Below, piece by piece: positions 26,098 to 43,776 of a stretch of 64,000 nucleotides of DNA. The stretch comes from Candidatus Onthoplasma faecipullorum (GTDB taxonomy: Bacteria > Bacillota > Clostridia > Christensenellales > UBA1242). Location of the stretch: the NCBI GenBank assembly GCA_019120295.1, contig DWVI01000002.1:80869-144868 (forward strand), read 5' to 3'. Each line of letters opens with the position of its first letter. Within the stretch, counting starts at the first letter, position 1. The notes below the pieces were generated by a model, which was given only the letters and a program-made list of their open reading frames with translations, searched no databases and had not been told where the DNA came from. The translations under genes and the position numbers were made by a program.

Positions 26098-26796
26098 ATG
26101 ATAGAATTAAATAACATAACTTACATAGTTGAAGATAAAGGAATTAAAAAAACAATCCTTGATAATATTTCAATAAAATTTGAAGATAATTGCGTCACTG
26201 CAATTACCGGTCAAAACGGAAGTGGAAAATCAACGCTTACAAAAATTATAATTGGCATAATTAAACCTACAAGTGGACAAATTTTATACAATGGTGTAGA
26301 TATCACAAATTACACAATAGACGAGCGCGTAAAACTTGGCATAAATTACGCATTCCAACAACCAATCACGTTTAAAGGCATGACAGTAAAAGAGTTGATA
26401 GACATTGCATCAAATCAAAACAACAGTATACCAAAAGCGTGCGAATATTTATCACGTGTTGGAATATGCGCCAAAGATTATATTGAGCGTGATTTTGATA
26501 AAACACTTTCAGGTGGTGAGCAAAAACGCATTGAACTTGCCATTGCCCTTGCGCAAAACGGCAACACTGTTATTTTTGACGAACCAGAGGCAGGAATAGA
26601 CATTTGGAGTTTTGAGCGACTTAGCAAAATTTTCGAAAAAAATAAATCATACATCGTAGTAAGTCACCAAACTAAATTTTTGTCGTCTGCTGATAAAATT
26701 ATTGTTATGGAAAATGGAAGAGTTACACAATATGGTCCAGCCAAAGATATTTTGAAAAATTTAAAAAGAATAACTTGCAAAAAGGTGGAAGAATAA
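26098..26796 (+). CDS. sufC: Fe-S cluster assembly ATPase SufC-like (ABC ATPase)
   Basis: Walker A GQNGSGKST, the signature LSGGEQKR and Walker B VIFDEPEAG are present. The gene is directly followed by, and abuts, a SufB/D-like gene. Confidence 0.8.
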   Translation: MIELNNITYIVEDKGIKKTILDNISIKFEDNCVTAITGQNGSGKSTLTKIIIGIIKPTSGQILYNGVDITNYTIDERVKLGINYAFQQPITFKGMTVKELIDIASNQNNSIPKACEYLSRVGICAKDYIERDFDKTLSGGEQKRIELAIALAQNGNTVIFDEPEAGIDIWSFERLSKIFEKNKSYIVVSHQTKFLSSADKIIVMENGRVTQYGPAKDILKNLKRITCKKVEE

Positions 26797-27711
26797 ATGA
26801 AACTAGATAAAATATCGCAAAATTTACTTGAACAAATAGCAAAAATTCATGAAATTCCAAATGGCGCTGTATCTTTTAGAAGAAATGGAAAGGGCGAAAT
26901 TGTTCGCTCTACCCCTAGCATAGAAATATTCAAAAAAGAAGACGGCTCTGGAATTGATATTTTTATTCACTCAACTTGCCAAAATGAAGCGTGTCACATT
27001 CCGGTTGTTGTGAGTGAAGAAGGGCTTTTTGATTTAGTTTACAATGATTTTTATATTGAAGACGGTGCATTTGTTACAATAGTTGCAGGCTGTGGCGTTC
27101 ACTCAAACGGTTCAGGCGGTCATGACGGAATTCACACCTTCCACATAGGTAAAAACGCAACAGTAAATTATATTGAAAACCACATTGCTCTTGGCAATGG
27201 TTCACACAAAATTTTAAACCCAACAACAAACATAACAGTCGGCGAAAATAGCATGATGAACATGGAAACAAATCAGTTAGGCGGAGTTGATTATTCAAAC
27301 AGAATAACAAAAGCAACTTTAAAAGAAAATGCCACATTAAATATCACTGAAAAAATTTTAACCGACCGCTTCAACACCGCTAAAACAGATTTTAAAGTAA
27401 ATCTAACAGGAAAAAACTCAAAATGCAATATTGTTTCAAGAAGCGTTGCACGTGGTGAAAGTGAGCAAGTGTTCAAATCTAATTTAATAGGTAAAAATGA
27501 ATGCTTTGGGCATGTGGAATGTGACGGCATTGTGCTAGACAAAGCGCAAATTAGTTCAATTCCAAGAGTGGATGCAAAATCTAACCTTGCTTCTCTTTCT
27601 CATGAAGCAGCAATAGGAAAAATCGCAAGCGAACAAATTGTTAAACTTATGACCCTTGGTTTAACAGAAAAACAAGCCGAAGATAAAATTATTGAGTGCT
27701 TCCTAAAATAA
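26797..27711 (+). CDS. SufB/SufD-family Fe-S assembly protein (short form)
   Basis: The ORF is 304 aa and its ATG immediately follows the sufC stop codon. The C-terminal ...VDAKSNLASLSHEAAIGKIASEQIVKLMTLGLTEKQAEDKII is typical of SufB/D. Confidence 0.75.
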   Translation: MKLDKISQNLLEQIAKIHEIPNGAVSFRRNGKGEIVRSTPSIEIFKKEDGSGIDIFIHSTCQNEACHIPVVVSEEGLFDLVYNDFYIEDGAFVTIVAGCGVHSNGSGGHDGIHTFHIGKNATVNYIENHIALGNGSHKILNPTTNITVGENSMMNMETNQLGGVDYSNRITKATLKENATLNITEKILTDRFNTAKTDFKVNLTGKNSKCNIVSRSVARGESEQVFKSNLIGKNECFGHVECDGIVLDKAQISSIPRVDAKSNLASLSHEAAIGKIASEQIVKLMTLGLTEKQAEDKIIECFLK

Positions 27712-27744
27712 ATTTAAATTTTTTCATTATTTGCACATTTAACT

Positions 27745-27776
27745 AAAAAAATGAGAAAACTTCTCATTTTTTTAGT
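27745..27776. terminator. Bidirectional terminator between suf and the DMT transporter gene
   Basis: The sequence aaaaaatgagaa-aac-ttctcatttttt is a perfect stem flanked by A- and T-runs. Confidence 0.85.
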
Positions 27777-27829
27777 TTTTATCAATAAAAATATCGTCAA
27801 ATTTATAAATTTATTTGTTACCAGAAATT

Positions 27830-28828
27830 TTAAACAAGCACAATGATTATTCCAACTAATATTATTGCTAAATAAATAAGTTTATATTTTAAGTTAGGCT
27901 CTTTATATAATAAGCCACCAAATATTACCGCAACAATAGTTGATAACTGCTTAATAATAGAAACGCCCGTAACTAAAACGTTTGGCTGTGATAGTGCTGT
28001 AAATAAAAATCTGTCTGCTATTATCAATATAAAAGGAATTATATACATAAGATAATTTTTCCAATCGCTTTTTTGCACTTGCATTTTTCTTTTTTTAGCG
28101 CAAAGAACAAAGAAATATATCCAAATTATAATCGCCACAAACAGCATGAACCAAAATTGCATTTGATTTGTTGACACATGATTTAAAATTATCTTATCTA
28201 AAATTCCAGATGTTTCATTAAAAATACACGAAAAAATGAAAAATATTATCGCTTTTATTCGTCGTTTTTTTAAGGTTTGCATATCTGTTTCAACAATTAC
28301 ATTTTCTGAAACTTTATTACTTTTTTCTATGTATACATTTTCGTTTCCAATATTTTCAAATTTAACAATGTTTTTATTTAAATCAATTTTATTTAAATTA
28401 AAATTATTCGCGTTTTTTAATGTTTTTCTATCATATTGATTAAGCGTTATCAAACCCGCAAAGATTATAACAACCCCAATAAATTTCCACCACACAACCT
28501 GCTCGTTGAATATCAACATATTTGCTATAAACGCTATAACAACTTTAATCGCACTTATTGGTTGCAATGATGAAATGTAATAATTTTTAAGCGCTATAAG
28601 TTCAAACACCCATGCTTGTGAAACAATAATTGATTTTCCAAAGATAAATAAAATATATTGCCAACTAAGTGTAACCGCTTCTGCTGCACTCCAAGAAACA
28701 AGCAAAAAACCAATACTACTAGACACCGCCAACACAAATAATAAATTTGTTTTTTGTGAAGCCTTTTTTCTAAGTACAGTATAAAATCCAATTAAAAGCG
28801 CATAGATAGTTGCAAACAATATCCACAT
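27830..28828 (-). CDS. DMT/EamA-family transporter with an Asn/Lys-rich central insert
   Basis: The 332-aa product has about 10 hydrophobic segments in two halves. They are separated by a hydrophilic segment (NQYDRKTLKNANNFNLNKIDLNKNIVKFENIGNENV...). Confidence 0.7.
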   Translation of the reverse strand: MWILFATIYALLIGFYTVLRKKASQKTNLLFVLAVSSSIGFLLVSWSAAEAVTLSWQYILFIFGKSIIVSQAWVFELIALKNYYISSLQPISAIKVVIAFIANMLIFNEQVVWWKFIGVVIIFAGLITLNQYDRKTLKNANNFNLNKIDLNKNIVKFENIGNENVYIEKSNKVSENVIVETDMQTLKKRRIKAIIFFIFSCIFNETSGILDKIILNHVSTNQMQFWFMLFVAIIIWIYFFVLCAKKRKMQVQKSDWKNYLMYIIPFILIIADRFLFTALSQPNVLVTGVSIIKQLSTIVAVIFGGLLYKEPNLKYKLIYLAIILVGIIIVLV

Positions 28829-28834
28829 GCTTAT

Positions 28835-28863
28835 ATAATATCACTTTGCAAATCAATTTACAA
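28835..28863 (-). promoter_or_regulatory. Promoter placed for a leaderless DMT-transporter mRNA
   Basis: On minus, TTGTAA (28863-28858), a 17-nt spacer containing TG, and TATTAT (28840-28835). The ATG at 28828 follows after 6 nt and there is no SD. Confidence 0.5.
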
Positions 28864-28911
28864 ATTATAAATCACCATATACAAAAATTAAAACAATTTA
28901 AACGCACAAAC

Positions 28912-28937
28912 AAAAAAGCATATTTGCCTATATGCTT
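28912..28937 (-). terminator. Intrinsic terminator closing the CRISPR-array transcript
   Basis: An 8-bp stem, aagcatat (28916-28923) with atatgctt (28930-28937). On the minus strand it is followed by a U-run, seen as the A-run 28912-28917 on plus. Confidence 0.7.
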
Positions 28938-28981
28938 AATTCACTACCAATCTCATTCTCCTTAGCCTTTACACCCTAACC

Positions 28982-29147
28982 CCAAAACCACCAAACTCAA
29001 TAACATAACTCAAACTCTGAAAAAGCAGATAATGAAAATAAATAAGTTTTAGTACTACCTAGAATAACATAACTCTCAAACTAATTTCCAGTCTTAACTT
29101 TTGCAAACGGTGTTTTAGTAGTATCTAGAATAACATAACTCTCAAAC
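28982..29147 (-). CDS. placeholder
   Basis: placeholder. Confidence 0.
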
Positions 29148-29166
29148 AGGGGCATATAATAAAAAC

Positions 29167-29253
29167 AGAATAACATAACGAGTTCAAATAAATGTTTTTC
29201 TAATCATTGTGCAGTGTGCACATAAGGTCAAGGCTGAAGGGTCTTGATTTTTT
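29167..29253 (+). ncRNA. tracrRNA-like small RNA (~87 nt)
   Basis: A perfect TATAAT at 29155-29160 puts the TSS at about 29167. AGAAUAACAUAAC (29167-29179) pairs perfectly with repeat nt 9-21. GAGU forms the bulge. UCAAAU (29184-29189) pairs with repeat nt 1-6 and ends in a G.U pair. Downstream lie the hairpin tgtgca-gtg-tgcaca (29208-29222) and a terminator stem (29228-29247) with a T6 run (29248-29253). Confidence 0.55.
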
Positions 29254-29374
29254 ATTTAAGTTTTACATTTTTATTTTAACATAGTTTACGAATATAAACA
29301 ATATATACTCTAAAAAATTTGTCGAAATATAATAAATTTTTTAAATAAAATAACACCCCTAGATTTTAGGGGTA

Positions 29375-29398
29375 TTAAAAAAAGGCGTAACGCCTTTT
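29375..29398 (-). terminator. Terminator of the TasA-like gene
   Basis: The stem aaggcg-taa-cgcctt (29382-29396) lies 4 nt after the stop codon, with a U-run on minus. A second hairpin, accccta/taggggt, lies just downstream at about 29352-29372. Confidence 0.8.
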
Positions 29399-29399
29399 T

Positions 29400-29996
29400 T
29401 TAACCGCCAGCCACTGGCGAATAAGTTTGAAGCCATTCAGACGGTGCAGTTGTCCAAACTGCATTTGCAGCATTATTTGCTTGTTGAATTGTTTCCACTA
29501 TAACTTCAATTGAATATGTTTTGTTTGCATCCGCATTGGTAAGGCTTGTTGGTATAGTTATGTTTGTAATGAAATCTATGTTATCATTTGCACTAACTGT
29601 ACCATTGTAATAGTAGTAATCGTCGTCACCTTCCACCCAGTCACCGGTTGTTGTTGCATCTACATTCGAAGTTGCACCATCTGTGTTAGTGATGGTAAGT
29701 TTTGCACGCATTAATGCTTCTGTCATTTCTGCTGGTGCTGAAACACCTATCGCTTGGTCATAAACTGTACCAGGAAGTGCATCCCCTGCAAAAGTTAAAG
29801 TGCTAGCAGATGCTCCGCCCTGTGTAATAGAAATTGTAACAGGGTCGCCCAAAGTTATATCACCTGCAACAGTTGCACTCGATGTGAAGTATGCAATGGT
29901 AACTCCAATCGCAATAGATGCAATTAACAAGATTGACAAAACAATAATTGCAATGGTAGATGTGGAAACTCTACGCCTTGTTTTTGTATTTTGCAT
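29400..29996 (-). CDS. Secreted protein with a SipW-dependent-type signal peptide (TasA/camelysin-like N-terminus)
   Basis: The 198-aa product has the N-terminus KTRRRVSTSTIAIIVLSILLIASIAIGVTIAYFTSSATVAGD. The AYFT(S/D) motif after the hydrophobic core is the hallmark of the TasA/CalY signal class. Confidence 0.65.
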   Translation of the reverse strand: MQNTKTRRRVSTSTIAIIVLSILLIASIAIGVTIAYFTSSATVAGDITLGDPVTISITQGGASASTLTFAGDALPGTVYDQAIGVSAPAEMTEALMRAKLTITNTDGATSNVDATTTGDWVEGDDDYYYYNGTVSANDNIDFITNITIPTSLTNADANKTYSIEVIVETIQQANNAANAVWTTAPSEWLQTYSPVAGG

Positions 29997-30164
29997 ATTT
30001 TCTCCTTTTTACACATTCGTATTTTGTGAAAAGAAAAAAATATTATTCACTTTTCAAAGATTTTTCAAATTCTATTTTTTTAATGTATATAAATAAATCA
30101 TTTATCTAGCAATAAGAGTAAAATATTATAAACCCACTAAAACCTTAAAATTAAAACAAAAAAA

Positions 30165-30182
30165 TACGTTTATCTAAACGTA
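30165..30182. terminator. Bidirectional terminator
   Basis: The stem tacgttt-atct-aaacgta is flanked by an A-run and a T-run, directly after the stop codon of the gene at 30195. Confidence 0.8.
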
Positions 30183-30194
30183 CTTTTTTATTTA

Positions 30195-32063
30195 TTAAAT
30201 TCGTGTGCCTTCAATTTTTGATGTGTTTTTAGTAACTTGAACCACGTTTTTATAATTTGTGATTATGCTTTGTTCATAATCTGTGTAACCAGTGTTTGAA
30301 GTGTAATTTTCTTCGTCGCTAGACGCTGGATAAACTTCGTCAAACAACATATCAAAATAGGTTTCACCAGTGAGTGGGTTTATTACTTTGTAATATAAGT
30401 TACTACTTTCAGCACCTACTCTATCATTTTCACTTATATACACACCGTCAATGTTTGTGATAGGAACATCGTACGCATCAACATTGCCTACATAGAATAG
30501 TAAGTGAACGCCATAACTTGTAACACATAAATCGTCTGCACTACCAGTGCTTTCGTCCACAACCTTAGACATTCCGCCACTAACGCCTTCTTCAATAAGC
30601 CTTACTGCTTCGTCTGTGAATGCTTCTTCCATTGCACTATTTCCATTTGTGCCAACCACATATGGCATACCAGCGCTTAATGTTGCAGTGTCACCAGTGT
30701 ATTTGAACATAAACTGAGTAAACGCGGATAAACGGTCTTGATAATTAGAAATTTGCGTTATTGACTTATATTCAGCCATAATATCACTAAATGGCACTGT
30801 GTCACCAGTCAACTCTCCTGTTTCAGGGTCACGAACAGCATATTCTCCTGCGCTTATTATTTCAAGAAGTCGAGCATTGTATTGTTTGTCAGTTAAACCA
30901 ACTTCTTTGTCAAGTGCGGTTTTCATGTTTTGTTGAGTTGTTGAAAAACTTAGTAATGTGTGTGTGAAGTAACCAAACTGTGTGCCGTCTGACAAATTAG
31001 TGTTATGCCATAAAATCGTGTCACCACTTGTGCCTATGTCTTGCATGTCTGTTTTGTAGGTGTCTTCATGATTTCTATATTTAACGTAACTAATTTGTGC
31101 CATTGCTTTGAATTCTTCAAGCAATTCATTTATGCTTAAATCTTCATTGATTAAATAGTCAACTCGGATATTTTCTAAATATTGAGATTCTATTTGAGAC
31201 TCAAAATTTCTTTGTATAAATCTAATTAGTAAATCGTGAGTGTTAGTGTTATATTTATTGCCGTTTTCGTCACGCAAATAATATTCATAATTTATTAAGT
31301 CTTCCGCCAAAAGTGAAATTGCTTTATTTTTAATTTCTTCACTTCTATCTTCATTAACTAGGCTAGACTCAAAGTGTGCCATATACTTAGTTAAAATTTC
31401 TTCTTCAATGCCAGTTAAAGTGTAGTCCGCTAAAAAATTTTGGTCAATTAATGCGTCAAACATGTCACTATCTTCATTGTTTGCAACATATCTAATCTTT
31501 GAAACAACTCGTGAATAGTCGGTTGGTGTTTCAGATATTTCGGTCATATCCGCATCAGTGTAGTACACTATTTCGTCCACAACCACTGCACGTGGAGTGT
31601 AGACATAATCAGAATAAGGTAAAATTTCTTCTTCGTCTGCGGTTGTGTCGTCTTCTTCAACAATGTCTATATTTAAAATAGATTTTGCGTCATTGACATA
31701 AGTTTCCATTTGGCTATCAAAACTATCAAATATCGCTTGCACTGCATCATTAACTTGCTTATCAGTAAGCGCGTATTTTTCGTCACTCAGTGCGTATTGA
31801 TATAAAAGTTCCCTATCAATTAACAAATCAAGTGTGCTTTTTAATGCTTCGTTTGCTTCCTGACCTAATTGCTGAACATAATAACTTTGACCATAACTAG
31901 AATATGCGTTTAGCAGTTCATAACGGGTGATTTCAGTGCTTCCAACTGTTGCCACCACTTCGTTATAATACCTAACGTAATTTATAGAAAAACCTGCACA
32001 ACCTGAAAGTGTGAAGGTAACCATCATAAGTAAACACAAAACTAATGCTGAAAATTTTTTCAC
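30195..32063 (-). CDS. Lipoprotein, PrsA/SurA-like foldase (peptidyl-prolyl isomerase-like)
   Basis: The 622-aa product has the lipobox LSGC and a SurA-N-like start (VVATVGSTEITRYELLNAY). A parvulin-like motif (TSYGVHLLFYVG) lies near the C-terminus. Its position next to mfd matches what is seen in clostridia. Confidence 0.6.
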   Translation of the reverse strand: MKKFSALVLCLLMMVTFTLSGCAGFSINYVRYYNEVVATVGSTEITRYELLNAYSSYGQSYYVQQLGQEANEALKSTLDLLIDRELLYQYALSDEKYALTDKQVNDAVQAIFDSFDSQMETYVNDAKSILNIDIVEEDDTTADEEEILPYSDYVYTPRAVVVDEIVYYTDADMTEISETPTDYSRVVSKIRYVANNEDSDMFDALIDQNFLADYTLTGIEEEILTKYMAHFESSLVNEDRSEEIKNKAISLLAEDLINYEYYLRDENGNKYNTNTHDLLIRFIQRNFESQIESQYLENIRVDYLINEDLSINELLEEFKAMAQISYVKYRNHEDTYKTDMQDIGTSGDTILWHNTNLSDGTQFGYFTHTLLSFSTTQQNMKTALDKEVGLTDKQYNARLLEIISAGEYAVRDPETGELTGDTVPFSDIMAEYKSITQISNYQDRLSAFTQFMFKYTGDTATLSAGMPYVVGTNGNSAMEEAFTDEAVRLIEEGVSGGMSKVVDESTGSADDLCVTSYGVHLLFYVGNVDAYDVPITNIDGVYISENDRVGAESSNLYYKVINPLTGETYFDMLFDEVYPASSDEENYTSNTGYTDYEQSIITNYKNVVQVTKNTSKIEGTRI

Positions 32064-32242
32064 TTTGCTCTCCTAAAATCAGTAAAATTATTGACTATTA
32101 TAATATATTTTATAATAAAAGGCAAGAGATTTATGGTCCAGTTTGATTTTTTTAGAGTTTAGACAATCAAAATTTTAGTTATCCACAGACAAGTAAAATT
32201 AATGTTGAGATCTCACATTTAATTACAAAATTTTTTGTAACA

Positions 32243-35200
32243 TTATTTTTTGTAATTAGACAAAAACTCAATCATATACGTTTGCGCTGTAACCACACTA
32301 AATTCGCTTGGGCTAAGTGTTATCGTTGGAAGGCTAACATTTTCAAACTTAAAGTGGTCATACTTTCTCACTCTCTCCAACAATTCTTTAACGTCCACAT
32401 CTTCATAGAAAGTGATAGCCATTCGCGTTTTGTTGATTGTAATCAACTTTACTTTTTGGCTAATTGCAAGCGAACGCATTAAACCAACTTGCGCCAATTG
32501 ATAAACTTCTTTTGGAAGTCGGTTGTATTTTTTTAGTAGGTCATTTATAACACTGCGCGCACTCTCTTTTGTAGTTATATTTGAAATACGTGCGATAATT
32601 TGTAGTCTTTCGCTTTCGTTGTCCACAAAATCTTGTGGTATTTTAGAACTTATTGCTATATCTAACTTAACTTCGCGCTCAATAGTTACTTTTTCACCTT
32701 TCAGTTTTCTCATGGTTTCGTCTAGAAGTTTGGTGTATAAGTCGTAACCTATTTTTTGCATATGACCATGTTGTACTTTTCCAAGTAACTCACCAGCACC
32801 ACGAATTTGCAGGTCGCGCATGGCAATTTTAAAACCACTACCAAGGTTTGTGTTTTCCGCGATTGCTTGAAGCCTGTTGGACGCTTCTTCGGTTAGCGTC
32901 TTTTCACTTGCATAGGTAAAATACGCATACGCTTGCTCAGTATTTCGCCCAACGCGCCCACGAAGTTGATACATTTGGCTTAAACCCAATTTATCGCTAT
33001 CAATAACAATCAATGTGTTGGCTTTTGGTAGGTCCACGCCATTTTCAATAAGTGTGGTCGAAACAAAAACGTCTGTTTCCCTATCATACAATCGCTTTAT
33101 GGCATTTTCTAGTGCAATTTCGCTCATTTGACCATGCGCCGTGTCAAACCTAGCCCCTGATTTCACTTTTGCCTGCAATCTATTAGATAATTCAGGAAGT
33201 TTCATAACGTTGTTATAGACAATTAGCACTTGTCCGCCCCTATTTAACTCTTCATTTATTGTGTTAACAACAATATCTTCATTGTACGCTAAAACATAAG
33301 TTTTAACAGGCAATCTATCAACAGGCGGTGTGTTTATAATACTGATATCACGAATGTTCATAAGCGACATGCTAAGCGTTCTAGGAATTGGAGTTGCAGA
33401 TAAGGTTAACACATCAACATTTGCCTTCATTTTCTTAATTTGTTCTTTTGCTTTAACTCCAAAACGTTGCTCTTCGTCGAGTATCAATAAACCTAAATCG
33501 TGGAATTTAACGTCGCTAGATAGTAACCTATGCGTGCCACAAATTACGTTAAGTTTGTTTGACGCTAAATCTTCTAAAATCTTCTTTTGTTCTTTACTTG
33601 ACCTAAACCTATTTAACATTTCAACAGTCACGCCAAAATCACCTGTTCTAGATTTTGCCGTCATATAATGTTGAAGGGATAAAATTGTGGTAGGCGCAAG
33701 TATTGCCACCTGTTTTCCATTTTCAACCGCTTTAAATAGGGCGCGCATTGCCACTTCGGTTTTACCAAAGCCCACATCTCCACAAATTAGCCTATCCATA
33801 ACTTTTCCGCTTATCATATCACGCTTAACATCTTGAATTGCTTGAAGTTGGTCGTTTGTTTCGGTGTATGGGAAGGCGTTTTCAAATTCGGTGTATAAAT
33901 AGTCGTCTTCACTATACTTAAAGCCTTTTGTCGCCTTGCGCTTTGCATAGATTTCTAGTAAGTCCTTTGACATATCTTCTATGGACTGCATTGCCTTAAC
34001 TTTCTCACGTGCAAACTCTTTTCCGCCAAGTTTGTTTAGTGTAACATTATCACCACTTGCCATGTATAAGGACAAACAGTCTGCATTTTCAGTTGGGACG
34101 TATAAACTATCTCCACCGCGGTAGACGAGTTTAAAAAATTCTTTTTCCACTCCGCCAACCGTCATGTTCACAACGCCCATACATTTTCCAATACCATGAG
34201 TTGAGTGAACCACATACTCGCCCGCTTTTGGCAAATATTTTATCTTTTTATTTTCAACCGCTTCCGCTTCTTTTTTATGTGCAAAATTGGCTGAACCAAT
34301 ATATAACTTTTCTTCACTTTCAAAACAAATATTGTATGGAATTTTTAAGTCGGTCAAAATTAAACCATGTGCATTTTTATTTAATGAATATGCAATGCCA
34401 TTATCAGAAAAAATTTTCTTTATTGAATTTATCGTGTCCGCATTTTCTAAACATATATAAATTTGCTTGTCTAAATACTTGCTGGTTTCTTTTGGAAGTA
34501 AATTTAAATTGAAAAGATAGGAAGAAAAATTTATTGTGTCATAATTTAGTGACAAAATTTTAGAATTTAATTTATTTTTTAAATCGAGCGTATTTATATC
34601 AAAATTTTCAAAAAATATTAAATTTTTACTAAAATTTGTTAAAAATTCGTCTATATTTTTAATTTTTTGATTATTTTTATAAATATTTATTAAATTTTCG
34701 TCCTTAAACACTAACTCAATTTTGCTAAAAATAGACTCTATATAATTATTTGAAATTGTTTCAAAAGAAAGTTCGTCCGCAATAATTATAGTTTTCCCAG
34801 AATTTAAAACTTGAATTAAATCGCTTGTGAAAGGTGCAATAAATTCGCTTGGAATAAAATCGCCACGCTCAATAGTTTCAACAACATTTAATGCGGTTGT
34901 ATTAATGTTTAAATACTTATTAAATTCATGCGTTACTGCATTTAAACTAGACGGCAAATATATCCAATCTGCTGGAAGAATTGTAAATTCATTCAACTTA
35001 GATAATTTTGTGTAAGACAATGTGTCAAAAGTGTGAATTTCTTCAATTAAATCGTCAAAAAAATCAATACGAGTTGCAGTTTCGTCCTTTATATTAAAAA
35101 TATCTAAAACGTCTCCACGACGAGAAAATTCGCCTTTATTTGTAACGCTTTCAACTTTCCTATATTTAACTTTAATTAGGTACTTTTCAAGTTCGGTTAT

Positions 35201-35587
35201 ATCTAAATTTTCACCGACTTTAATTGACTTTATATTTTCATTGAACACATCAAATTTTTGAATGTGTGAAAACAAAATTCGTGGTGTGGAAATTAGTATT
35301 GTGTCATTTTGAGTTAGAGCATATTCTGCGCAAATTAAATCGTATAAATTATCCTTACTTGAAAATTTTGATATAGTGTAAGGTTTATCAAAATCGTCCA
35401 CAATAACACATTTTTTATTCAATGCGTCTAATTGCAATTTCATTTTTCTAGCATACTCAACATTCGGGCAAATAAAAATACCACTTGGAATTTGAGATAG
35501 CACTGCACCCTGCTCACCTAGCCCCAAGTTTGAACAAAATATTGTGGTTTTATTAATGTTGTCTAATAGTTGTTCTGTATTTTTCAT
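32243..35587 (-). CDS. mfd: Transcription-repair coupling factor Mfd
   Basis: The 1,114-aa product has helicase motifs (GDVGFGKTEVAMRA, LLILDEEQRFG, TLSATPIPRTL, QLRGRVGR) and the CarD-like segment (GEYVVHSTHGIGKC). Confidence 0.95.
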   Translation of the reverse strand: MKNTEQLLDNINKTTIFCSNLGLGEQGAVLSQIPSGIFICPNVEYARKMKLQLDALNKKCVIVDDFDKPYTISKFSSKDNLYDLICAEYALTQNDTILISTPRILFSHIQKFDVFNENIKSIKVGENLDITELEKYLIKVKYRKVESVTNKGEFSRRGDVLDIFNIKDETATRIDFFDDLIEEIHTFDTLSYTKLSKLNEFTILPADWIYLPSSLNAVTHEFNKYLNINTTALNVVETIERGDFIPSEFIAPFTSDLIQVLNSGKTIIIADELSFETISNNYIESIFSKIELVFKDENLINIYKNNQKIKNIDEFLTNFSKNLIFFENFDINTLDLKNKLNSKILSLNYDTINFSSYLFNLNLLPKETSKYLDKQIYICLENADTINSIKKIFSDNGIAYSLNKNAHGLILTDLKIPYNICFESEEKLYIGSANFAHKKEAEAVENKKIKYLPKAGEYVVHSTHGIGKCMGVVNMTVGGVEKEFFKLVYRGGDSLYVPTENADCLSLYMASGDNVTLNKLGGKEFAREKVKAMQSIEDMSKDLLEIYAKRKATKGFKYSEDDYLYTEFENAFPYTETNDQLQAIQDVKRDMISGKVMDRLICGDVGFGKTEVAMRALFKAVENGKQVAILAPTTILSLQHYMTAKSRTGDFGVTVEMLNRFRSSKEQKKILEDLASNKLNVICGTHRLLSSDVKFHDLGLLILDEEQRFGVKAKEQIKKMKANVDVLTLSATPIPRTLSMSLMNIRDISIINTPPVDRLPVKTYVLAYNEDIVVNTINEELNRGGQVLIVYNNVMKLPELSNRLQAKVKSGARFDTAHGQMSEIALENAIKRLYDRETDVFVSTTLIENGVDLPKANTLIVIDSDKLGLSQMYQLRGRVGRNTEQAYAYFTYASEKTLTEEASNRLQAIAENTNLGSGFKIAMRDLQIRGAGELLGKVQHGHMQKIGYDLYTKLLDETMRKLKGEKVTIEREVKLDIAISSKIPQDFVDNESERLQIIARISNITTKESARSVINDLLKKYNRLPKEVYQLAQVGLMRSLAISQKVKLITINKTRMAITFYEDVDVKELLERVRKYDHFKFENVSLPTITLSPSEFSVVTAQTYMIEFLSNYKK

Positions 35588-42391: not shown

Positions 42392-43120
42392 TTAATCTTT
42401 TTTATCTTTACGAGTGAAAATGTTTAGAAATTTTGCAAGGGTTAAAGTTATGCCGTCCGCGTGAACGATTGCGTATCTTTTTAGCGCTGCTTTACCAAAG
42501 ATTGTTAGTCCTGCAATTACAGCGGAAACAACAGCAGATATTAAAACCACGGTAAAATCACCCGCACTTTCAATCACAATTTTTGCAAGTATACTTGCTC
42601 CTGCTGAACCCGATAGAATTCCGCACACATCACCTAACACGTCCGAACAAATGGAACTCACTCTATCTGCATTTTTAACAAGCGCAATCGCCTGTTTGCT
42701 ACCCTTCACTTTTCTTGACGCCATTGCCGTAAACGTTTCTAAATTACTTGTTGCAACGGCTAAGCCAATCATATCCGTTAAAACTGCTATTGAAATAAAC
42801 ACTAAAATTACAATCACAGCCAAAACAATATTTGCATTGGATAATGTTAATTCACTAATAACGCTAAACGAAAAAGATAGCACTAACGCCATGATTAGCA
42901 CTTTAACCGGCCAAACCCAAGCGGACTGCTTTTTAGGTCTGTTTTTTGATTTTTGCTCGGCGTTTTGCTTCGCGTCCTTTACTCGTTTGACACCTTCACC
43001 ATTTTTCGTTTCATTTTCGCTTGTTGTTTTATCGTTTAAACTTTCGTCTGATTGCTCTAAATCAGGTTCTTTTTTATTTAAATCTTCAATTTGTTTGTTA
43101 CTATCAATATCTTCTTTCAA
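42392..43120 (-). CDS. Four-TM membrane protein with a Lys/Glu-rich N-terminus; OapA-like by context
   Basis: Four hydrophobic segments are seen: WVWPVKVLIMALVLSFSFSVI, ANIVLAVIVILVFISIAVLTDMIGLAV, VLGDVCGILSGSAGASILAKIVI and FTVVLISAVVSAVIAGLTIFG. The start is uncertain. The tracked ORF starts at a GTG (43150). The TTG at 43120 has an aagga SD 8 nt upstream. Confidence 0.6.
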   Translation of the reverse strand: MKEDIDSNKQIEDLNKKEPDLEQSDESLNDKTTSENETKNGEGVKRVKDAKQNAEQKSKNRPKKQSAWVWPVKVLIMALVLSFSFSVISELTLSNANIVLAVIVILVFISIAVLTDMIGLAVATSNLETFTAMASRKVKGSKQAIALVKNADRVSSICSDVLGDVCGILSGSAGASILAKIVIESAGDFTVVLISAVVSAVIAGLTIFGKAALKRYAIVHADGITLTLAKFLNIFTRKDKKD

Positions 43121-43175
43121 TTTCTTTTCCTTATAATTATATATAAACACACGTTATGTGATAAATTTTAAAATA

Positions 43176-43741
43176 ACGAAGGCAATTTTCAAGGTAAACC
43201 TTGCGGCATAGGTTCGGTTGGATTTCCCAATTTTGCACTTGTCCGTTACCAGCCAAGCGGTTTCCCTTTACGCAAAACTTGCACCGAATCGCCACTTAGA
43301 CCACACTATAATCCCCTGAAAATCTCTATCGAACAGCCTAGAAGTTTTCCTTAACAACATCAAACAAACTTATCTTTATTTTGCGCTCGTGATTTCAAAA
43401 GCAACTTAAAACGCTCGTGTACTTTGAAACGAATTAAGTTGTCGCTTAATCCCAACACTCACACTCAAAGCAGGCTACACTGCACATAACTTTCGCCATA
43501 TGCAGGTTCAATCCTTAGTGATAGAACATCTCTAAATAGCAACATTTCTACCAGATAAGGTCTCCACGATAATTGGGGGCGAACACATATGCCGTTACGT
43601 ATCTCCCAAAAATCTTAACTCCCAGCACCAGCCCCAGTTTGGGCAACCAAGGCCAGCACCACGAACTTCACAGTTTTGCCAGCGATGCTTATTTCGGCAC
43701 CCTCGTTTGTTCTAGTTGACTAGAATACTGCGCCTTCGTAC
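43176..43741 (-). ncRNA. Large (~565 nt) structured non-coding RNA candidate, OLE-class by size and context
   Basis: No ORF of 60 aa or more occurs in any frame across about 800 bp. G+C is clearly above that of the flanks. The 5' end ACGAAGGC (43739-43732) pairs with the 3' end GCCUUCGU (43183-43176). Internal hairpins include UUCUAG-UCAA-CUAGAA. The RNA has a dedicated consensus promoter. Confidence 0.55.
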
Positions 43742-43747
43742 AATAAT

Positions 43748-43776
43748 ATATTATCATTTTACCACAAATTTGTCAA
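43748..43776 (-). promoter_or_regulatory. Consensus sigma-A promoter of the large ncRNA candidate
   Basis: On minus, TTGACA (43776-43771), a 17-nt spacer and TAATAT (43753-43748). The TSS is predicted at about 43741. Confidence 0.65.

Follow-up and report, generated by a model that had tools for sequence, protein, structure and literature searches.

Annotation of the window, i.e., the whole stretch of 64 kb analysed here, which lies on a 506-kb contig of assembly ERZ4883056 and has a GC content of about 29–34%, revealed a very short CRISPR array and a divergently oriented tracrRNA gene located 19 nt from its first repeat. Both lie between a transporter gene and a gene for a small secreted protein. 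In window coordinates, the features of this region are:

27830–28828, minus strand: EamA/DMT transporter gene (right flank; Pfam EamA), belonging to the deletion-linked haplotype block
28912–28937, minus strand: weak AU-rich hairpin with a U-run, a possible terminator separating the array from the EamA gene
28982–29015, minus strand: terminal degenerate repeat with a strain-specific 2-nt deletion, compared with GTTTGAGAGTTATGTTATTGAGTTTGGTGGTTTTGG in cas-less and cas+ strains
29016–29045, minus strand: spacer 2, 30 nt, TTATTTATTTTCATTATCTGCTTTTTCAGA
29046–29081, minus strand: repeat 2, with two substitutions (…CTAGGTAGTAC…) private to the window strain
29082–29111, minus strand: spacer 1, 30 nt, ACCGTTTGCAAAAGTTAAGACTGGAAATTA
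29112–29147, minus strand: repeat 1, carrying the family consensus sequence and 36/36 identical to the 17 repeats of the type II-A locus L050
29148–29153, minus strand: deletion junction GCCCCT, the 6 nt between the end of cas+ homology and repeat 1
29155–29160, plus strand: -10 box TATAAT of the tracrRNA promoter, with the native -35 missing
29167–29253, plus strand: tracrRNA gene, comprising the anti-repeat, a linker of about 19 nt, hairpin 1 (GUGCA/UGCAC), a terminator hairpin, and a U-run
29167–29189, plus strand: anti-repeat, pairing with the repeat
29400–29996, minus strand: 198-aa secreted protein with a SipW-dependent signal peptide (left flank; NCBIfam TIGR04088, 22.9 bits, cut-off 19)

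The neighbouring genes have housekeeping functions, namely EamA/DMT, SufC/SufD, SpoIIID, the 198-aa protein, a SurA-like protein, Mfd, Pth, and a CobW-family protein. A 1114-aa ORF was considered as a Cas9 candidate and rejected, as it encodes Mfd. Elsewhere in the window, a full-length OLE RNA was detected at 43163–43752 (minus strand; Rfam RF01071, 354.6 bits, E = 1.5e-100), immediately followed downstream by a 252-aa ORF (42392–43150, minus strand) with weak membrane-protein-like NCBIfam matches only. A single ORF of 7096 aa (about 21 kb; 2974–24264, minus strand) is conserved in conspecifics, with 7096–7100 aa in contigs L001 and L069.

On the minus strand, the repeat reads GTTTGAGAGTTATGTTATTCTAG[A/G]TA[C/G]TACTAAAAC, and the two full repeats, identical at 34 of 36 positions, form an array with a period of 66 bp together with the degenerate terminal repeat. 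A search of the 64 kb for further copies with up to 3 mismatches resulted in no hits, the shuffle expectation being 0.00. The terminal unit of seven other strains has the sequence GTTTGAGAGTTATGTTATTGAGTTTGG..., which makes the 2-nt deletion specific to the window strain and the diverged 3' half that of a normal terminal repeat. The first-pass annotation had described two 36-bp units with 34/36 identity and a spacing of 30 bp, followed by a third, degenerate unit at 28982–29015 with a 2-nt deletion and a diverged half; repeat coordinates and the comparison of terminal units agree with this layout, the unit is not dispersed in the 64 kb, and our own count reproduced the 25/36 matches to the S. 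pyogenes repeat in the form given there. Searches against Rfam at gathering thresholds revealed no match in the region and no match to a tracrRNA family, and CRISPR-DR22 reached a sub-threshold 24.7 bits against the window repeats (gathering score 50). The terminator proposed at 28912–28937 (minus strand) is plausible as a hairpin with a U-run but weak, since the AU-rich stem of 8 bp yielded a fold z of -2.0 and was not called by the terminator scan. Between the terminal repeat and this putative terminator, the trailer displays a 10-nt indel (GGTAGTGAAT, window about 28941–28950), which the window has and L002 lacks.

On the opposite strand, the fold of segment 29167–29256 has two hairpins and a terminal U-run (z = -3.18), and the terminator scan called the second hairpin with its U-run at 29224–29253. 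The plus-strand sequence AGAATAACATAACGAGTTCAAAT is predicted to pair with the repeat via two helices, of 13 bp and 6–7 bp, separated by an asymmetric internal loop. With -20.2 kcal/mol, this duplex lay below the mean of shuffled controls (z about -2.6), but some eight unrelated 100-nt windows in the 64 kb pair equally well or better, so that the shuffling check proposed earlier was not passed convincingly. As duplex energy is thus not decisive, homology was used in its place.

Over 90 nt, the tracrRNA shares 90% identity with its counterpart upstream of the L050 cas9, and it is near-identical to those of the conspecific cas+ strains L062 and L067. Homologs located directly upstream of cas9 were identified in L050, L062, L065, L067, L013, L029, L032, L035, L054, L026, and L077. 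These 11 distinct sequences share one architecture, consisting of an anti-repeat, a conserved linker of about 19 nt, a hairpin of 3–6 bp, and a terminator hairpin. In individual folds, hairpin 1 appeared at the same position in each homolog, with covarying stems (GUGC/GCAC, CUUCA/UGAAG, GUUGC/GCAAC, UCGC/GCGA, and CCACA/UGUGG), and the sequences of the terminator hairpins are unrelated. RNAalifold on a MAFFT alignment of the 11 homologs returned no pairs because MAFFT misaligned the short hairpins, and the individual folds were used in its place. The tracrRNA call of the first-pass annotation is thus confirmed by homologs beside cas9; its anti-repeat geometry (13 bp and 6 bp with an asymmetric loop) was reproduced with a second helix of 6–7 bp, and TATAAT at 29155–29160, the two hairpins, and the terminator were recovered by sequence, fold, and terminator scan, respectively.

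In the cas+ strains L062 and L067, the tracrRNA promoter has the form TTGACT-17 nt-TATAAT, with the -35 overlapping the region of the cas9 ribosome binding site (RBS). At the -35 position, the window carries the repeat sequence AACATA with 2/6 matches. The native tracrRNA promoter has kept its -10, TATAAT, and lost its -35 (TTGACT). In cas+ strains (L067 3680–3725; L062 7790–7845), only some 45 nt separate this -35, which is on the opposite strand, from the cas9 ATG, and its location in the cas9 RBS region implies that a cas9 promoter, if any, must be situated within the tracrRNA gene in antisense orientation. There, at window positions 29231–29203, the minus strand has a weak promoter-like motif (TTGACC-17 nt-AATGAT), which in the deletion allele would point into the array.

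When a single genome of each species was scanned with the initial 19 nt of the repeat, 58 loci were obtained from Clostridia, Erysipelotrichaceae, and Peptostreptococcaceae, mostly long arrays with a 66-bp period; the majority of these loci adjoin cas9-cas1-cas2-csn2. None of these 58 loci displayed the window flanks, and no copy of the repeat was found in viral contigs. One of them, L050 from a Clostridia MAG, has 17 repeats, all 36/36 identical to window repeat 1. Its layout comprises a tracrRNA gene on the opposite strand, cas9 (1417 aa), cas1, cas2, csn2 (220 aa), an 88-nt leader, and the array, and Pfam confirmed Cas9, Cas1, Cas2, and Csn2; it is an active type II-A array of a related MAG. 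The type II-A assignment made earlier is therefore correct by homology to cas9-linked loci, beyond mere resemblance. Like type II-A systems of the 'Group 1' class, the window locus has a 36-nt repeat of the form GTTT...AAAAC, 30-nt spacers, and an anti-repeat with an asymmetric bulge. Conspecific or related strains of this class possess tracrRNA-cas9-cas1-cas2-csn2 (220 aa) and a leader ending in ATTTGAG, whereas the window has lost the four cas genes, the leader, and the tracrRNA -35, so that only the two RNA-coding parts are left. ATTTGAG/GTTT is the conserved leader-repeat junction of 'Group 1' type II-A systems (S. thermophilus CRISPR1-type) and was shown experimentally to be required for adaptation (PMC5382924).

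Apart from L050's own, the Cas9 closest to that of L050 was P0002 (82% identical), encoded on L062, where the gene order is Pth, Mfd, SurA-like, 198-aa protein, tracrRNA, cas9, and cas1. Compared with the window, Mfd is identical at 1109/1114 and the 198-aa protein at 196/198 positions, and in the cas+ strains L062, L067, and L068 the tracrRNA gene and cas9 directly follow the 198-aa gene. Contig L067, from another sample, harbors the full operon with a leader ending in ...CAAATTTGAG|GTTTGAGAG (also given as ...AAATTTGAG|GTTTGAGAG). On L074–L076 the EamA side is present and the contigs break inside the array, all three having the trailer spacer ATTAAAATCGCCTACGACTTGAACACCTTT in common; L075 stems from the same sample as L062. 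In the cas+ conspecific L068 (1658–3716), cas9 displays a 1-nt deletion in an A-run (GTAGAAAAG to GTAG-AAAT) with a stop at codon 523, which is either a second, independent route of Cas9 loss in the species or a homopolymer assembly error.

In minus-strand alignments, the homology of the window to L062 and L067 extends from the 198-aa gene across the tracrRNA gene as far as ...GTTATGTTATTCT-N6-ATTATAT. Beyond this point, the cas+ strains continue with CATAAAAAAATAAAGGAGTCAAG...ATG, i.e., the cas9 RBS and start codon, whereas the window continues with GCCCCT and then repeat 1. The missing segment comprises at least 6,214 bp (L067 3694–9907) plus further repeat-spacer units. A tblastn search with Cas9, Cas1, Cas2, and Csn2 of the closest relative against the 64 kb detected no cas-related sequence (best E = 2.7), as the first-pass annotation had stated. 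Its remark that there is essentially no leader was also right, as the leader with the ATTTGAG end was deleted together with the cas genes, and of its three alternatives for the module (a remnant of a deleted locus, service in trans by a distant cas9, or a role other than canonical immunity) the first is borne out by conspecifics that hold the full cas operon at the exact site.

The sequence abutting the first repeat reads GCCCCT|GTTTGAGAG in the window and ATTTGAG|GTTTGAGAG in L067 and L050. GCCCCT was rejected as a leader end, given the ATTTGAG end of the intact L067 leader; the right breakpoint therefore most likely falls inside a spacer, and repeat 1 would originally have been an internal repeat. 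GCCCCT itself is probably the 3' end of a truncated internal spacer, and no spacer ending in GCCCCT was found among the recovered cas+ arrays. Recombination between anti-repeat and repeat was considered as a mechanism of the deletion and rejected, since both are intact and the junction does not contain the 3' half of the repeat.

The identical 19-nt junction (GTTTTTATTATATGCCCCT) followed by repeat 1 was recovered from 7–8 other contigs, each from another sample (e.g., L066, L069–L073, and L079). Altogether, the cas-less allele was seen in at least 9 samples, compared to 5 samples with cas+ strains. Among cas-less strains, the segment of tracrRNA and junction revealed 0–1 differences per 109 nt, and EamA at most 9/999 differences, as against about 50/999 to the cas+ strains. 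This block of low diversity spans about 1.5 kb including EamA, and the more distant flanks are mosaic. The identical junction together with one trailer/EamA haplotype indicates that the deletion arose once. Comparing the window with L069, we counted 45/1258 differences in mfd, 11/1869 in the gene for the SurA-like protein, and 0/109 in tracrRNA plus junction. For SufC, the window differs at 2 positions from L074 and at 24 from L069, EamA showing the opposite pattern (window 26098–35587 versus L062, L067, and L069–L076). Such discordant distances between segments point to frequent homologous recombination in the species. The tracrRNA is intact and identical in all cas-less strains but one. This identity could reflect constraint rather than recency, yet just 0.3–1 differences would be expected per 109 nt; by these counts, the low diversity of the block is enough to account for how well the tracrRNA is conserved across cas-less strains.

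The arrays themselves differ between strains as follows:

window: spacers S1-S2, cas-less
L066: spacers A-B, cas-less
L072: spacers D-E-F, cas-less
L079: spacers E-C, cas-less
L069, L070, L071, and L073: spacer C, cas-less
L002: ends in spacer C, cas-less, contig stops inside the array

Thus, cas-less arrays carry 1–3 spacers, with E and C common to several arrays in a consistent order, and no spacer gain was seen in the cas-less arrays compared. These ordered, overlapping subsets argue for different deletions from one longer array and not for new acquisition. The window spacers S1-S2 and A-B of L066 have no spacer in common with the other arrays, and for them one long ancestral array is assumed. 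As more repeat pairs mean more opportunities for deletion, an array lacking a leader would be expected to shrink fast at first and then to persist with a few repeats, in line with the 1–3 spacers observed. Further changes, namely the two substitutions in repeat 2 and the 2-nt deletion in the terminal repeat, are private to the window strain.

Searches against GenBank phages, PLSDB plasmids, and, with exact cores, IMG/VR resulted in no match for window spacer 1 and in chance-level matches only for window spacer 2, and the exact cores of four spacers were absent from IMG/VR. BLAST analysis of nine spacers against phages and plasmids revealed one coherent lead, for L066 spacer B, and none for the window spacers. 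On the minus strand of L066, spacer B (TTCGTATGTCAACGCCAATTTATCCGGTAA) aligns at 87–92% identity with the major capsid gene (VP1) in five Microviridae records from the gut; the records derive from rodent, moose, capybara, and yak hosts, and each match is weak by itself (E about 5), but all lie in the same gene. This similarity suggests microviruses as targets of the ancestral system.

Based on these data, the locus is very probably what an in-situ deletion has left of a type II-A CRISPR-Cas system. The ancestral state would be the one displayed by the conspecifics, i.e., the 198-aa gene, a divergent tracrRNA gene, cas9-cas1-cas2-csn2, a leader ending in ATTTGAG, the array, a degenerate terminal repeat, and EamA. 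According to the alignments, one deletion of at least 6.2 kb would have had one end immediately upstream of the tracrRNA -10 and the other 6 nt short of an internal repeat, placing a tracrRNA gene with its -10 but without its -35 directly beside a leaderless array. Subsequent deletions between repeats may then have reduced the array to 1–3 spacers, as the ordered, overlapping subsets imply, and point decay has begun in repeat 2 and the terminal repeat of the window strain. In type II-A systems, crRNA maturation needs Cas9 and RNase III, interference needs Cas9, and adaptation needs Cas1, Cas2, Csn2, Cas9, and the leader end. By this general biology, loss of Cas9 would abolish crRNA maturation and interference, and loss of Cas1, Cas2, Csn2, and the leader motif would abolish acquisition. 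As the cas-encoded parts are absent from the window, what remains there is most likely an inert relic in decay.

Assemblies frequently break or collapse at CRISPR arrays, and the contigs L002 and L074–L076 indeed end inside the array. An assembly artefact by collapse of the CRISPR locus, or a chance repeat, is nevertheless barely conceivable here: the same unique junction including the non-repeat GCCCCT occurs in 8–9 independent assemblies from different samples and pipelines, collapse of repeats cannot remove 6.2 kb of unique cas sequence, and the chance expectation of the repeat is 0.00. Another reading concerns use in trans, in which a compatible type II-A Cas9, possibly with an adaptation module, would service the tracrRNA and mini-array from another site in the genome or from a mobile element. 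Intact sequence and fold of the tracrRNA, the variable spacer content among cas-less strains, and the precedent of the orphan type II-A array CRISPR2 of E. faecalis, which works with the CRISPR1 cas9 (PMC4894674), would be in line with it. We consider it quite unlikely, though, given that the leader, the ATTTGAG motif, and the tracrRNA -35 are gone, that ordered loss accounts for the spacer differences with no gains seen, and that repeat 2 and the terminal repeat carry strain-specific mutations. Moreover, the conspecific Cas9 cluster at 90% consists of three members, all from other samples, and the next-closest Cas9s examined are from other organisms. Two proteins were considered as a second Cas9 of the source assembly and rejected: P0079, on an 823-kb contig, belongs to another assembly, and P0004 is the Cas9 of a different MAG.

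Retention for a non-immune purpose, e.g., as regulatory RNAs, or as homology arms for regaining the cas operon, with a selected deletion allele spread by recombination, would account for the occurrence of this allele in diverged, mosaic backgrounds (window versus L069: mfd 45/1258, tracrRNA and junction 0/109) and in at least 9 samples versus 5 with cas+ strains. Regulatory roles have also been discussed for the orphan arrays rliB of Listeria and CRISPR2 of E. faecalis, according to PMC4894674. However, low diversity extends over the whole block of about 1.5 kb including EamA and is not specific to the RNAs, the spacers differ between strains, so that there is no fixed target, and the promoters are damaged or absent; we therefore regard this reading as very unlikely. 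The wider proposal that the cas-less allele is a selected, recombination-spread state of a locus flipping between cas+ and cas-, in which tracrRNA and repeats serve as homology arms or are used by a Cas9 acting in trans, is likewise unlikely. Loss of the system in situ, leaving an inert relic, is the reading we prefer.

The closest known case is the orphan CRISPR2 of E. faecalis, also a type II-A array without cas genes that occurs in many strains of a gut species mixing cas+ and cas- members, with spacer content varying between strains as at the window locus. The window array, however, occupies the former cas site, has a tracrRNA gene of its own beside it, and has become leaderless, whereas CRISPR2 stands apart from the CRISPR1-cas locus, and in the experiment with CRISPR2, cas9 and the predicted tracrRNA had to come from CRISPR1 (PMC4894674). 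A short cas-less array is likewise kept in the chromosome of another Firmicute, Listeria monocytogenes, as rliB. Its transcript is processed by PNPase and a regulatory role was proposed, as cited in PMC4894674; nothing points to such a role for the window locus.

Altogether, the locus does not reveal a new mechanism but is a well-resolved new case of a known phenomenon, in which loss of cas genes leaves an orphan type II array. It provides a clean natural snapshot of type II-A loss, with breakpoints placed within a few nt and with intact and deleted alleles in one uncultured gut species, and the series of strains shows an orphaned array collapsing through ordered spacer loss. It also demonstrates that tracrRNA genes can outlive cas9, which matters for annotation pipelines that read tracrRNA genes or arrays as evidence of an active system. 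The locus also offers a natural experiment for the costs and benefits of CRISPR-Cas in gut anaerobes.
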